64,000 nt of DNA. Origin: Dehalococcoidia bacterium. Lineage in GTDB: Bacteria > Chloroflexota > Dehalococcoidia > SHYB01. The notes below the pieces were generated by a model. The model was not told the origin of the DNA. It saw nothing but the letters and a program-made list of their open reading frames with translations, and searched no databases. The translations under genes were made by a program, and so were the position numbers. The stretch covers positions 604,062 to 668,061 of the forward strand of contig CBDCOW010000001.1 of the NCBI GenBank assembly GCA_965219875.1, given 5' to 3'. This document shows, piece after piece, positions 4,877 to 58,900 of the stretch; the first letter of the stretch is position 1; the number at the start of each line of letters is the position of its first letter.

Positions 4877-4878
4877 AC

Positions 4879-5247
4879 GTGGCCACGGCGGAGCAACATC
4901 GAGCGATTAGCACTCAGTTCTTGGAGCACGCCGAGGACGAATTACGTAAAGGCGATCTGCTTCAGGCCTCCGAGAAGGCATGGGGGGCGATTTCCCACTA
5001 TGTGAACTCCGTTGCCCGTCAGCGGAACTGGCCTTTGGGATCGCACAGCCGACTGATCGCAAATGCCAACAAGCTAATCAGCGGCGACCCAGCCAACGCG
5101 AGCCATAAGCGGAGGCTGCTCCGATCAATCGAGGCGCTACATGCTAACTTCTATCAAGCATTCTTGGACGAGGATTCGGTGGGCGAGGGCATTCAGGACG
5201 CCAAGGAACTTATCAGAACCCTAGAAGTCCCTAACACGGACACATAG
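4879..5247 (+). CDS. HEPN-like protein (Rx4-6H motif)
   Basis: 122 aa all-helical; RSIEALH matches HEPN R-x4-6-H motif near C-terminus; tightly coupled to preceding ORF. Confidence 0.45.
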   Translation: MATAEQHRAISTQFLEHAEDELRKGDLLQASEKAWGAISHYVNSVARQRNWPLGSHSRLIANANKLISGDPANASHKRRLLRSIEALHANFYQAFLDEDSVGEGIQDAKELIRTLEVPNTDT

Positions 5248-50069: not shown

Positions 50070-50290
50070 GCGCATTCGACAAACGGCTGCTTTCGAGGGC
50101 GTCCCGAAATGGGGCGCCCTCGTTTTTTGCCGTTGACCCTCTCCTTTGGAGACCTGTGCAAAGCGTTAGCGCGGAGGGAACGGGCGCCCACAAGGGGCGC
50201 CCCTACGGGAGGGGATGGATTCCCGCGAAAGCGGGAAGATCTCCTTTGGGACACGCTTGCGTGACCCGCTTGGCGGCATCAAACAACCAT
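50070..50290. repeat. REP/MITE-like repeat cluster: GGAGACCTGTGCAAAGC variant, GGGCGCCCACAAGGGGCGCCCCTACGGGAGGG hairpin module, GGATGGATTCCCGCGAAAGCGGGAAG hairpin module
   Basis: same modules recur at 53776, 57208, 58670, 58835. Confidence 0.6.
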
Positions 50291-50400
50291 TATCTACTTG
50301 ACGTTTTCTAGCAGGGGTGCCAAGATCAGGCTATGCGGTTGGGAGGGCTGCCTTAGCGGTCCGTTGAGACATGGTTCTCGCCCGGCCGCCTTTTCTTTGT

Positions 50401-51129
50401 ATGCACCTGTTATATCTAGACGACGCTGGTTCGGTTGGGAATCCGAACGACAAGCACTTCATTCTAGCGGGAATCGCCGTATTCGAGCGTCAGGCCCATT
50501 GGCTTGACGCCGAACTGGAGAAACTGGCTGCAAGTCTTGGATATAGCAATCCCGCCAACATCGAGTTCCATGGGGGTCAGATTCTTTCGGGCCGCGGTCT
50601 CTGGCGACGGGAGCCAACAGTTGAGCGCCGCAGCATCATAAGGCGCGGGCTAGAAACGGCGCGGGCGCTTCTTGGAGACTGGCGGCTCTTCGGGGCTGTG
50701 GTCGACAAGCGTGAACGCTCTCCTGAGGACCCGACCGAATACGCCTTCGAGCAACTCTGCAACAGGTTTGATCGTTTTCTCCAGCGCTTGCACCATCAGG
50801 GTGACAGCCAGAGAGGACTGATCGTTCTGGACAAGTCTACGAGGGAAACGCGACTCCAATCCCTTGCTGCTGAATTCAAAACAGCAGGACATCGATGGGG
50901 TGTCACCCGGAATCTGGCCGACGTGCCATTCTTCGTCGATTCGAAGGCGACGCGCCTAATCCAGTATGCCGATCTCGTTTCTTACGCGTTGTGGCGGAAA
51001 TTCGAGAAGCAGGACGACGAGTTCTTCGATGCGGTCTCGGATGCCTTTGACCGGGAGGGAAGCGTCGTCCACGGTCTTCATCACTACAAGAACCGTAGCG
51101 AGTTCTGTGACTGCCCCGGTTGCGCTTGA
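50401..51129 (+). CDS. DUF3800-family protein with C-terminal CxCxxC-type Cys cluster
   Basis: starts MHLLYLDDAGS...FILAGIAV (DUF3800 N-terminal signature YiDESG-like); AT-richer than flanks; ends ...EFCDCPGCA. Confidence 0.5.
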   Translation: MHLLYLDDAGSVGNPNDKHFILAGIAVFERQAHWLDAELEKLAASLGYSNPANIEFHGGQILSGRGLWRREPTVERRSIIRRGLETARALLGDWRLFGAVVDKRERSPEDPTEYAFEQLCNRFDRFLQRLHHQGDSQRGLIVLDKSTRETRLQSLAAEFKTAGHRWGVTRNLADVPFFVDSKATRLIQYADLVSYALWRKFEKQDDEFFDAVSDAFDREGSVVHGLHHYKNRSEFCDCPGCA

Positions 51130-53759: not shown

Positions 53760-53860
53760 GGGGATGGCCCCCACGGGACCGGGCGCCCACAAGGGGCGGC
53801 CACAAGGGACCGGGCGCCCACAAGGGGCGCCCCTACGGGAGAGGCTAGTTTGAGAAGCAG
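53760..53860. repeat. two tandem copies of the GGGCGCCCACAAGGGGCG(C/G)CC hairpin module between purM and purH
   Basis: read directly. Confidence 0.6.
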
Positions 53861-53869
53861 GAGCGTGGC

Positions 53870-55222
53870 GTGAAGGCAATCGTCGGCGTTTGGGATGACC
53901 GTGGACTCTCCGTTTTCCTCGACCGCCTGCGGATGGCCGGCGGGTTCGACGTGGTCCCCGCCGGAAGGGCCGTCGGCGTGAAGGAAATCGAAGGCTCCGG
54001 CCTTGTGGTGATGAACCTCCGTCCCTTCCCCGGCACGGTCGAAGACATCGACATCGGCGGGACGGCGCTCTTACGCGCCGCGGCGAAGCGCTTCGCCGCC
54101 GTCGCCGTAGTCGTCGACCCCGACGACTACCCCTGGGTCGCGGCAGCGCTCACCGGCGGCGGTCTTTCGCTCGGCCAGCGGCGCACGCTGGCACACAAGG
54201 CGTTCCAGCACGTCTCGGCCTACGACGCCTCGGTGGCCGCCTCCCTGCGCGGCGACGAGGACCCCTCCGACCCGACGCTGGGCCCCGACCTCGTTATCGG
54301 GCTGCGGCGGCTCCAAAGCCTCCGCTACGGAGAGAACCCGCATCAGAAGTCGGCGTTCTACCAGGAGCTCCCCGCCCGTGCCGGCGTCATCGCAACGGCG
54401 AGGCAGCTGCACGGCAAGGAGCTCTCCCACAACAACATCATCGACGCCGACGCGGCCTGGTCCGTCGCGCGCGACTTCGATGAGCAGACCTTCGCCATCG
54501 TCAAGCACACCAATCCCTGCGGTCTCGCCGCACGCACCGATCAGGCCGAGGCCTACCGGCTCGCCTTCGCCGGCGACCCCGTCTCCGCCTTCGGCGGGAT
54601 CGCCGCCTGCAACCGCGAGCTGACCCTCGCCGCCGCCGAGGAGATGCGCAAGATCTTCTTCGAGATCGTCATCGCCCCAGCGTTCCAGGCCGATGCGTTG
54701 GCGCTGCTGCGGAAGAAGCGCGATCTACGCATCCTGGAAATCAGCGGGGGCGCGGACGGCCCGCCGCCGCTCGACTACCGTCGCGTGTCGGGCGGCATGC
54801 TGGTGCAGACCCCCGACGAACTCGCCGAAAACCCGAAGTCGTGGCGGGTCGTGACCGGCCGCGTCCCCTCCTCCGACGAGCTCGCCGAGCTCGCCTTCGC
54901 GTGGAGGGCGGTGAAGCACGTCAAGTCCAACGCCATCGTCCTCACCAAGGAGCGGGCGCTGCGCGGCATGGGCGCGGGCCAGCCCAACCGGGTGACGAGC
55001 GTGCAACTCGCGCTGCGGGCCGCCGGCGACGAGGCCAAGGGATGCGTGGTGGCGTCCGACGCCTTCTTCCCCTTCGCCGACGGGGTCGAAGCCGCCGCCG
55101 AGGGCGGCGTCACCGCGATCGTCCAGCCGGGCGGCTCCATCCGCGACGAAGAGGTCATCGCCGCCGCCGACGCGGCGGGCCTCGCGATGGTCTTCACCGG
55201 CACGCGCCACTTCAAGCATTAG
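53870..55222 (+). CDS. purH: bifunctional AICAR transformylase/IMP cyclohydrolase
   Basis: DIGGTALLRAAAKRF, GENPHQ, GGSIRD, TGTRHFKH motifs. Confidence 0.8.
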   Translation: MKAIVGVWDDRGLSVFLDRLRMAGGFDVVPAGRAVGVKEIEGSGLVVMNLRPFPGTVEDIDIGGTALLRAAAKRFAAVAVVVDPDDYPWVAAALTGGGLSLGQRRTLAHKAFQHVSAYDASVAASLRGDEDPSDPTLGPDLVIGLRRLQSLRYGENPHQKSAFYQELPARAGVIATARQLHGKELSHNNIIDADAAWSVARDFDEQTFAIVKHTNPCGLAARTDQAEAYRLAFAGDPVSAFGGIAACNRELTLAAAEEMRKIFFEIVIAPAFQADALALLRKKRDLRILEISGGADGPPPLDYRRVSGGMLVQTPDELAENPKSWRVVTGRVPSSDELAELAFAWRAVKHVKSNAIVLTKERALRGMGAGQPNRVTSVQLALRAAGDEAKGCVVASDAFFPFADGVEAAAEGGVTAIVQPGGSIRDEEVIAAADAAGLAMVFTGTRHFKH

Positions 55223-57099: not shown

Positions 57100-57260
57100 T
57101 TGCCTAACCGGGCTCTAACTCTATCATAATGGGGGCGTTCGTCCGGCCTGGGCGGGCTCTCTCGGGGATGGGGCGATTCGCGTATCGCCCCTACGGGAGG
57201 CCGGAGGGGAGGGCGCCCACAAGGGACGCCCCTACGGGAAGGGAACTATCCGGAAAGGAC
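57100..57260. repeat. REP-like hairpin modules (GGCGATTCGCGTATCGCCCCTACGGG; GGGCGCCCACAAGGGACGCCCCTACGGG) between gap and the M20 gene
   Basis: read directly. Confidence 0.55.
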
Positions 57261-57265
57261 CGCTC

Positions 57266-58447
57266 ATGGCTACCACTCTCGCCGATGAGGCCGCCGCTCT
57301 TGCCCCGCAGATCGTGGCTCTCCGCCGCGACCTCCACGCGCACCCCGAGCTTGCCTTTAAGGAGACGCGCACCGCTGGGATAGTGGCGGAGCGGCTCGAA
57401 GCCCTGGGCCTTGAGGTGCGGACCGGTGTGGGGCAGACCGGCGTCGTCGGGCTGCTGCGCGGCGCGCGGCCGGGCAAGACGGTCGCCCTCCGGGCGGACA
57501 TCGACGCTCTCCCCATCGAGGAAACGAACGACGCCGGCTACCGGTCGGTCAATCCGGGCGTGATGCATGCCTGAGGGCACGACGGCCACACCGCGGCGGT
57601 CTTAGCCGCGGCCGAAATGCTCGCCCGCCGCCGCGACACCCTGGCGGGTAACGTCAAATTCATCTTCCAGCCCGCCGAGGAGATGGCCGCCGGGGCACCG
57701 GCGATGATCGAGGACGGCGTCCTCGAAGACCCGGCGGTCGACGCCATCTTCGCCTTCCACCTGTGGAACTTCCTGCCCGCCGGCGCCGTCGGGCTGCGCG
57801 CGGGGCCCATCTGGGCCTCCGTGGATCGTCTGCGGATCAAGATCATGGGTCGCGGCGGTCACGCCGCGACCCCGCATCAGACCATCGACCCCATCCCCAC
57901 GGCCTCCCAGGTCGTCCTCGCGCTGCAGACCCTGGTGAGCCGCGAGTCGCGCCTCGGGAGCCCCGCCGTCCTGAGCGTCACGTCGCTCCAGGCGGGGACG
58001 ACGTGGAACGTCATACCCGGCGAGGCGGTGCTTCAGGGCACCCTGCGGACCTTCGACCACGCCCAGCGCGACGTGCTGGTCGAGCGCGCCGAGGACATCG
58101 TGCGCGGCATCTGCCTCGCCGCGCGGGCGGAGTACGAGTTCACGTCGGAGTACCTCGCGCCGCCCGTGGTGAACGACGAAGCGATGACCGAGCTGGTGCG
58201 CGGCGTTGCCGCCCGCGAGCTTGGCCCCGAGTGCGTTGCCTCGGTCGAACAGGCAGCGCTCGGCGACGACATGGCCTTCTTCCTCGACCGCGTCCCGGGC
58301 TGCTACATCATGATGGGATCGCGCAACGAGGCCCGCGGCCTCACCCAAGGCCACCACAACGCCGCCTTCGACTTCGACGAGTCCGTCCTGCCCACGGCGG
58401 CGCGCCTCCTCGCCGCCACGGCGCTCGACTCCCTCGGCGAGTCTTAG
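57266..58447 (+). CDS. M20D-family amidohydrolase (hippurate hydrolase/aminoacylase-like) with in-frame TGA at 57572-57574 replacing the conserved metal-ligand Cys (MHA-TGA-GHDGH); candidate selenoprotein or pseudogene
   Basis: the two ORF-track pieces (57266..57574, 57617..58447) are in one frame and together read a complete M20D protein; the TGA sits exactly where the family has Cys in MHACGHD; hairpin CCGCGGC-GGTCTTA-GCCGCGG begins 16 nt downstream. Confidence 0.55.
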
Positions 58448-58551
58448 CCACGGCTAGTCGAGACCAAGCTCCTTGCCCCAATGGGGCCGCGGCTACGTTG
58501 ACGCCGGCGCACCCCTCCCAGGCCCCCGCCCTCACCCCTGCCTCTCCCGTG

Positions 58552-58755
58552 GGAGACCTTTGCGTAACCGGGGTCGAGGAGGGAGAAGCGCCCTGTCGGG
58601 CGCTCGCGCGCCTAGCGGCGCGCGCCCTCTCTCAAATCTCCCCCAGAGGGGGAGAGGCCGGAGGGGAGGGCGACCACAAGGGTCGCCCCTACGGGAGGGA
58701 TGGATTCCCGCTTTCGCGGGAATGACGGATATGGTCAGGTTACGCAAGGGTCTCC
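58552..58755. mobile_element. MITE-like element (204 bp) bounded by inverted copies of the IS 17-mer (GGAGACCTTTGCGTAACC ... GGTTACGCAAGGGTCTCC), containing the CGCTCGCGCGCCTAGCGGCGCGCGCC, GGGCGACCACAAGGGTCGCCCC and GGATTCCCGCTTTCGCGGGAAT hairpin modules
   Basis: read directly; termini identical to the IS5 element ends at 15395/16610. Confidence 0.55.
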
Positions 58756-58808
58756 AGCGGGAGAGGGGGCAGACCGCCCCGCGCCACCCGTTTTCCGGCT
58801 CACCGGCG

Positions 58809-58900
58809 GGTTACGCAGAGGTCTCCGGAGGGAGGGCGCCCACAAGGGACGCCCCTACGGGCTGCGCTGTTGCGCGGCGCTGGTTGTTGCAAAGGTCTCA
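58809..58900. repeat. two further inverted solo copies of the 17-mer (58809-58826, 58886-58900) flanking another GGGCGCCCACAAGGGACGCCCC module
   Basis: read directly. Confidence 0.55.

Follow-up and report, generated by a model that had tools for sequence, protein, structure and literature searches.

The DNA analyzed here, hereafter the window, is a 64,000-nt (64-kb) stretch of contig CBDCOW010000001.1 from a Dehalococcoidia bacterium, and the gene of interest encodes an M20D amidohydrolase on its forward strand (57266-58447). The bacterium belongs to an uncultured GC-rich lineage, and among named organisms its proteins come nearest to those of Dehalococcoidia/Chloroflexota/SAR202 metagenome-assembled genomes (about 58-60% identity). 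When an in-frame TGA is read through, the gene is complete, with 393 codons followed by a TAG stop. Gene callers report two pieces instead, a 102-aa open reading frame (ORF; 57266-57571) and a 276-aa ORF, the remainder after the TGA spanning 57575-58447. The TGA (57572-57574), a proposed selenocysteine (Sec) codon, specifies residue 103 and lies where the MHACGHD motif has its metal-bridging Cys; there the read-through product has the sequence ...NPGVMHA-TGA-GHDGHTAAV... It is followed by a hairpin (57591-57611, forward strand) resembling a Sec insertion sequence (SECIS).

The joined protein scored 382.2 bits against the TIGR01891 family hidden Markov model (HMM; cutoff 153.75) and matched Pfam families Peptidase_M20 (PF01546, 151.8 bits) and M20_dimer (PF07687, 47.6 bits). 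Homologs of solved structure (YxeP, ILL2, SAPEP, AgaA and 3IO1) aligned to it with E-values of 1e-86 to 1e-48, the nearest being YxeP (1YSJ; E = 1e-86), and MHACGHD fell on MHA-TGA-GHD in both of the alignments displayed. The other ligand motifs (GHD, FQPAEE, AFH with its internal His, and the C-terminal GHH) are kept in alignment with YxeP and ILL2; Cys alone has become UGA. These frame, motif and family matches uphold the original prediction that the TGA occupies the metal-binding Cys codon of an M20D enzyme. The equivalent Cys of the M20D enzyme CsAga bridges two Zn ions (PMC11511702). Among equivalog HMMs, the best specific model, carboxypeptidase CpsA (NF040868), gave 404 bits under a cutoff of 500, and DoeB2 (NF038260) gave 306 bits under a cutoff of 550; therefore, no specific substrate was assigned.

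A Shine-Dalgarno-like sequence, GGAAAGGA (57252-57259, forward strand), lies 6 nt 5' of the ATG at 57266 and presumably serves in ribosome binding. No comparable purine-rich motif could be read upstream of the internal ATG at 57617 (GCCGCGGCCGAA). From the TGA to this next possible start there are 14 codons, GHDGHTAAVLAAAE (57575-57616, forward strand), which carry the His metal ligand of CGHD and include no in-frame ATG, GTG or TTG. With neither a start codon nor a ribosome-binding site, the segment would therefore be translatable solely via read-through of the UGA.

The SECIS-like hairpin has a predicted energy of -14.5 kcal/mol and consists of a perfect 7-bp GC helix, CCGCGGC / GCCGCGG (57591-57597 / 57605-57611), set 16 nt downstream of the UGA and closed by a 7-nt apical loop, GGUCUUA (57598-57604), at a spacing of 23 nt. 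The published model of the bacterial SECIS (bSECIS) specifies a loop of 3-9 nt, a stem of 4-16 bp, a distance of 16-37 nt from the UGA and a minimum free energy (MFE) of -7.5 kcal/mol or lower (PMC13188914), and further demands a G within the first two loop positions (PMC13188914 Fig. 2). The window hairpin satisfies every one of these constraints. Its stem, loop and 16-nt distance can be read directly from the sequence as originally described; the earlier figure of 25 nt from UGA to GGUC needs correction, as 57598 is the 24th nucleotide after the A of the UGA, and the accompanying statement that the distance falls within the allowed range stands. The likeness of GGUC to the apical loop of Escherichia coli fdhF also holds, as over 5,400 genomes contain the sequence following the fdhF UGA, with its GGUC loop 18 nt downstream.

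Conservation of the TGA was examined among relatives of the window gene. Two database proteins come nearest, at 95% and 93% identity; both are the same truncated 276-aa ORF, and the clusters behind them hold 22 and 48 sequences from ENA, JGI, NCBI and Logan, with the TGA implied in all 70. It is present in the eight related loci fetched (L001, L002, L178, L208-L211 and L083, the last bearing the window's own ORF). Wherever enough flanking sequence was available, a GAPDH gene lies divergently upstream and a major facilitator superfamily (MFS) transporter gene directly downstream, except that the latter arrangement is missing from L001. Clade members show zero indels over 1182 nt, no frameshifts and no further stops, and third codon positions account for 55 of 73, 96 of 128 and 84 of 116 of the differences among them. 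The ratio of nonsynonymous to synonymous divergence (dN/dS) is 0.10-0.23 for the part before the TGA and 0.10-0.13 for the part after it, at dS values as high as 0.48. Across the 14 codons from the TGA to the ATG, each sequence pair shows 0 nonsynonymous vs 2-4 synonymous differences. L178 (GC content 59%) keeps the TGA at a dS of 1-1.9 from the window, with dN/dS ~0.1. At L211 1501-1503, which corresponds to window 57617-57619, TTG replaces ATG, so that the full-length frame reads Leu for Met; a change of this kind is more in keeping with a codon inside the gene than with a conserved start. Together, the comparisons indicate that the TGA is real, old and held under purifying selection on both flanks.

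UGA has its usual role as a stop in the genome of the window, where 35 confident long genes end in TAG (19), TGA (11) or TAA (5). The predominance of TAG seems unusual for a 65% GC genome. Scanning the 64-kb window for other TGA-bridged coding regions gave none that was convincing besides the M20D gene. We regard it as almost certain that the UGA codon in this gene is functional and translated.

In order to find the same arrangement elsewhere, metagenome sequences were scanned with the pattern H-A-TGA-G-H-D-G-H; results refer to the matches listed, and counts are lower bounds. The scan yielded at least 35 genuine M20D genes of this kind (TGA-type), or at least 38 with the window, L001 and L002, representing at least 33 distinct sequences. 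About 50 human-gut matches (including L084, L087 and L088) were rejected as not M20D, being one conserved out-of-frame sequence, VRVDAHGGHAHA*GHDGHRRV. TGA-type genes span a gene GC content of 42% to 76%. Full-length members show 38-54% identity between groups and up to 75% to genes with Cys at this codon (Cys-type), and every TGA-type group is nearer to Cys-type genes than to other TGA-type groups. A neighbour-joining tree resolved at least 10 separate TGA-type lineages among the matches listed. In the clade of L086, L143 and L174 the TGA is kept, without gaps, although dS is saturated and dN is only ~0.1 (ratio 0.04-0.07). A scattered Sec/Cys distribution has been described for genuine selenoprotein families (PMC1088965). 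The combination of TGA and hairpin has either originated or been retained in at least 10 lineages of M20D genes.

Negative controls were taken from a protein-query scan of genome contigs, in which the matches listed provided 84 Cys-type genes (loci L003-L082, at most 51% identity), with MHACGHD in the 84 genes. A single function with the bSECIS constraints was run on all sequences; whole-segment folding energy is uninformative in GC-rich, Ala-rich DNA, and a position- and loop-specific hairpin metric was used instead. A hairpin of -7.5 kcal/mol or lower, with a G at the first or second loop position and lying 20-25 nt after the UGA, was found in 27 of the 33 distinct TGA-type sequences listed, with loops GGUC (14), GUC (4), AGUC (2), GGGG/CGGG/GGG (5) and others (2). 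For the first 24 distinct TGA-type sequences the comparison was 20 of 24 vs 1 of 84 Cys-type genes (Fisher's test, 7e-17), and at a GC content of at least 0.6 it was 18 of 21 vs 1 of 26 (Fisher's test, 5e-9). The bSECIS model itself is permissive, and 8 of the 26 GC-rich Cys-type genes pass once the 20-25 nt restriction is dropped.

The RNA stem and loop persist while the peptide beneath them varies by lineage (AAVLAA, AIGLMA, AISLMA, AMGLMA, AVAVV). An ungapped alignment anchored on the reading frame was built from the 17 sequences in the window's register, and compensatory double changes (CG/GC, AU/GC, UA/CG) occurred in 5 of 9 stem pairs. Pairing was seen in 88% of cells vs 19-60% with the partner slid by 1-3 columns, and the observed covariation score was reached by 0 of 500 shuffles. 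Lower-GC TGA-type members individually outdo synonymous recoding (p = 0.004-0.011). Within the window's clade the stem is invariant and the loop varies (GGUCUUA, AGUCUUG or GGUCCUG), with pairing in L178 preserved by a G-U wobble. The nearest Cys-type genes, P0003 and P0004 (L204/L205), are positional orthologs with 62% identity, GAPDH upstream and Cys at the codon. Beneath their peptide HTAAALMAAE is no SECIS-like hairpin (none, or -1.9 kcal/mol, vs -14.5 for the window), and in the window's clade the hairpin thus appears to go with the TGA. Both comparisons that the original prediction had called for favor its candidate selenoprotein: clade orthologs keep the TGA, with Cys in distant homologs and positional orthologs, and the hairpin fits the published SECIS model, with position and loop conserved across TGA-type lineages. 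The conserved TGA, purifying selection, Cys homologs and family-level covariation of the hairpin all lend support to that reading.

Further evidence comes from a host of one TGA-type gene. On the 10.8-kb contig L131, a TGA-type M20D gene is followed 4 kb downstream, in the same orientation, by a full-length MoeB gene with rhodanese and ThiF domains (L131 4632-6107, reverse strand). The MoeB product scored 553 bits against NF006444 (cutoff 449) in an alignment that crosses its stop. The MoeB TGA (4878-4880) falls at a conserved Cys position in the context ..PT-TGA-AEAGVLG.., which we take to be the catalytic Cys of the MoeB/ThiF xCxEAGV motif, and is followed after 20 nt by a hairpin with the loop GGUCCUG. 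The M20D gene of L002 has exactly this loop. As a selenoprotein family, MoeB is well established (PMC1088965, PMC13188914). At least one host of a TGA-type M20D gene thus has a second selenoprotein gene, of a known family and with the same kind of SECIS loop. MoeB alone held among the 13 TGA-bridged candidates in the flanks of TGA-type loci; the other 12 were rejected as an ordinary stop followed by the next gene.

It is very likely, in our judgment, that the UGA encodes Sec through the SelB/SECIS mechanism. It is hypothesized that the M20D gene yields a full-length amidohydrolase of about 42 kDa, with UGA codon 103 recoded by the standard bacterial route. The hairpin 16 nt past the UGA would use its G-start (GGUC) apical loop to recruit SelB with Sec-tRNA(Sec), and Sec would replace the Cys that bridges the two catalytic metal ions, giving a selenolate-bridged di-metal hydrolase. 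By analogy with [NiFeSe] hydrogenases, a possible benefit would be a metal-bridging ligand that resists irreversible oxidation, or an altered metal affinity. We infer Sec as the inserted residue, the reading of the hairpin by SelB and the functional benefit alike. M20D is also likely to be an uncatalogued selenoprotein family in which Sec replaces the thiolate bridge of a hydrolytic two-metal center and in which the switch between Cys and Sec has been repeated.

Several observations weigh against Sec insertion. The folding energy of the 75-nt segment at 57566-57640 is unremarkable against dinucleotide shuffles (z = 0.17). About 60% of synonymous recodings that follow the gene's codon usage still yield a SECIS-like hairpin, and 17% match or beat the one observed. 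DNA of 71% GC that encodes an Ala-rich peptide readily forms GCC/GCG palindromes. Third positions within the stem are invariant in the clade (4 of 4) vs 38% variable gene-wide, which is not significant. Taken by itself the window hairpin is weak evidence, and the case therefore rests on comparative data. There too, whole-segment MFE of real and recoded sequences was inseparable in every lineage (median z ~ -0.2), and the metagenome pattern covered TGA at the M20D Cys codon and no other codons. A canonical hairpin at 20-25 nt is missing from 6 of the 33 TGA-type sequences (L089, L115, L132, L161, L185 and L192), among them one 42% GC gene and two hippurate-hydrolase-like genes; these may have another, non-canonical type of SECIS or be defective copies. 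The Cys-type genes of L206 (3001-4185) and L207 (3001-4188), with 72-75% identity to TGA-type L148 and L141, share a CACCGC-GGUC-GCGGUG hairpin with the 'TAVAVV' class of TGA-type genes (L104, L141, L148, L176 and L198) and carry it 20 nt after the Cys codon. The hairpin therefore does not discriminate TGA from Cys in this class, and in L206 and L207 it may be either a fossil SECIS in recent Cys reversions or the mark of a subfamily pre-adapted for Sec insertion. Finally, neither the 64-kb window nor any of the fetched loci yielded selA, selB, selD or tRNA-Sec, and the TGA-type loci gave no tRNA-Sec prediction with ARAGORN. When SelA, SelB and SelD of E. coli served as queries, tblastn against 2.1 Mb of window and locus DNA gave one match, to a SelB-like GTPase; it was discarded as uninformative, being in L184, a spurious locus without an M20D gene.

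The want of Sec machinery in these sequences leaves some room for recoding of the UGA to another residue, whether by the SelB/hairpin route, by a suppressor tRNA or by near-cognate read-through with tRNA-Trp or tRNA-Cys, and the evidence for read-through would fit this equally well. Naturally occurring tRNAs that resemble tRNA-Sec but are charged with Cys are on record. In one form of this alternative, Cys would be delivered by a tRNA(UCA) of Cys identity; the product would be an ordinary or a Trp-substituted M20D enzyme made in low yield. We consider recoding of this kind unlikely. A covarying hairpin with a G-start loop at SECIS spacing is the known SelB signal and would be superfluous for near-cognate read-through, Trp or Gly at the metal-bridging site would probably inactivate the enzyme, and a product that still contains Cys would give little reason for TGA to be fixed repeatedly and independently over a Cys codon that works. 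The MoeB gene beside the TGA-type gene on L131, of a known selenoprotein family, also speaks for Sec.

In another alternative, translation would stop at the TGA and re-initiate at the ATG at 57617, with the 102-aa and 276-aa polypeptides forming an active or regulatory complex. Purifying selection on both pieces and the prediction of the same two ORFs by gene callers in every member are in keeping with such a split gene, but it would leave the synonymous-only divergence of the 14 gap codons (GHDGH, with the metal-ligand His) unaccounted for, as these have no start codon. The ATG is without a Shine-Dalgarno-like sequence, is TTG in L211 and aligns with differing residues in other TGA-type lineages, and a C-terminal piece without GHDGH would lose two metal ligands; a split gene is thus very improbable. 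That the gene is a decaying pseudogene with a Cys-to-opal nonsense mutation is less probable again. A single substitution would turn TGC or TGT into TGA, and the six hairpin-less TGA-type sequences could individually be pseudogenes or errors. However, dN/dS is ~0.12 on both flanks with no frameshifts or extra stops in the clade, the TGA has been kept through saturating synonymous divergence in two clades, and the same codon has been hit in at least 10 lineages with flanks intact in each. The chance of a sequencing or assembly error, or of a lineage in which UGA is reassigned to sense, is negligible, as the TGA recurs in independent ENA, JGI, NCBI and Logan assemblies, 11 of the 35 confident window genes end in TGA, and there is one convincing TGA-bridged coding region in the 64 kb. 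The nonsense pseudogene and base-call error that the original prediction had listed as alternatives are thus set aside by dN/dS and by the independent assemblies.

Sec insertion in the M20D gene would have close parallels in known systems. E. coli fdhF likewise has an in-frame UGA at a metal-ligand Cys, an intragenic hairpin just downstream with a GGUC loop, and widespread Cys homologs. The product of fdhF, however, is a Mo/W-pterin oxidoreductase of an unrelated family in which Sec ligates a redox metal, whereas the M20D enzyme is a hydrolytic di-metal (Zn/Mn/Co-type) amidohydrolase in which Sec would be a bridging ligand. The hairpins differ in spacing (23 nt in the window gene vs 18 nt in fdhF), and the window stem is without the bulged U. 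In architecture the M20D protein resembles YxeP of Bacillus subtilis (1YSJ) and ILL2 of Arabidopsis (1XMB), with two domains and the motifs MHAxGHD, PAEE and C-terminal HH; SAPEP of Staphylococcus aureus (4EWT) and AgaA of C. striatum (6SLF) share the same architecture and motifs (E = 1e-86 to 1e-54 for the four structures). These homologs of solved structure have Cys where the window gene has UGA. The [NiFeSe] hydrogenases also use Sec for a metal-coordinating Cys, with Sec and Cys versions coexisting in related organisms, and Sec is proposed to keep the metal site from being irreversibly oxidized (PMC13188914). Those are redox enzymes, whereas M20D enzymes catalyze hydrolysis with no known redox step. 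The MoeB family, known from the Sargasso Sea, was similarly found purely via a TGA in frame, a homolog with Cys and a SECIS, and has a scattered Sec/Cys distribution (PMC1088965); unlike M20D, it is an adenylyltransferase/sulfurtransferase of another fold and chemistry and is already catalogued. The YgeY family (NF009555), an M20 peptidase, is an M20-superfamily hydrolase linked to selenium metabolism by genomic co-occurrence. Membership of the window gene in it was rejected, the N-terminal match reaching 25 bits against a cutoff of 321. YgeY itself is not known to be a selenoprotein.

As stated in the original prediction, M20D lies outside the described selenoprotein families. The May 2026 catalogue of 119 prokaryotic selenoprotein families and subfamilies has no entry for PF01546, TIGR01891, M20, peptidase or amidohydrolase (PMC13188914 Table 1), and no other metallohydrolase is among the 119 (PMC13188914). 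No selenoprotein-specific model in NCBIfam release 20 matched the M20D protein, and within the library searched no paper paired Sec-containing proteins with an amidohydrolase. A paper on C. avium was rejected as a precedent, its passages on selenium genes and on an M20 hippuricase being unrelated. Redox enzymes, or proteins with redox-type motifs, make up most of the known selenoproteins (PMC13188914). Sec serves as a ligand of a redox-active metal in formate dehydrogenase and [NiFeSe] hydrogenase, and a ligand role has been suggested for some metal-binding selenoproteins (PMC13188914). Such a ligand is not known from any di-metal enzyme that catalyzes hydrolysis. Most likely, then, M20D is a new selenoprotein family in which the decoding mechanism is the ordinary bacterial one and the protein family is the new part.

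If so, M20D would be the first metallohydrolase among the catalogued selenoprotein families, and a Sec-bridged di-metal hydrolase would take selenium biochemistry into hydrolytic, non-redox metallo-catalysis. The Cys/Sec switch at one codon would have recurred in at least 10 lineages of soil and sediment bacteria, making the family a natural system for the study of SECIS gain and loss and of the role of selenium at a non-redox metal site. Syntenic orthologs at 62% identity would offer a clean natural comparison of Sec with Cys in metal affinity, in selectivity or in the oxidation resistance of a metal-bound chalcogenide. Those Cys-type relatives that carry the GGUC hairpin offer a rare view of a SECIS pre-existing or lingering in coding sequence. 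TGA-type M20D genes are mis-annotated throughout as 102-aa and 276-aa products, and their recognition would correct many metagenome-assembled genomes and add a marker of Sec use for poorly known soil lineages.

Other features were noted in the window. An internally palindromic element of ~32 nt (GGGAGGGCGNCCACAAGGGNCGCCCCTACGGG) that resembles a repetitive extragenic palindrome (REP) occurs in five copies, all intergenic and on the forward strand (0.03 expected by chance), with cores at 50189-50208, 53819-53838, 57218-57237, 58675-58694 and 58841-58860. Copies of it lie on both sides of the M20D gene. The spacer at 58.5-58.8 kb also contains a 29-nt inverted repeat with 90% complementarity (58541-58569 / 58738-58766). 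PurH (53870-55222, forward strand) has 450 aa, as do two relatives at 94% identity, and matches PF01808 only; homologs at 57-68% identity have ~507 aa and an additional N-terminal MGS-like domain (PF02142). The end of purM (53751) lies only ~100 nt from the PurH ORF, and the N-terminal ~57 residues therefore seem to be genuinely missing. The Rfam DUF3800-VI RNA motif (RF02915) was detected at 50336-50388 on the forward strand (60.6 bits, gathering score 35), where it overlaps the start of the ORF at 50371-51129.

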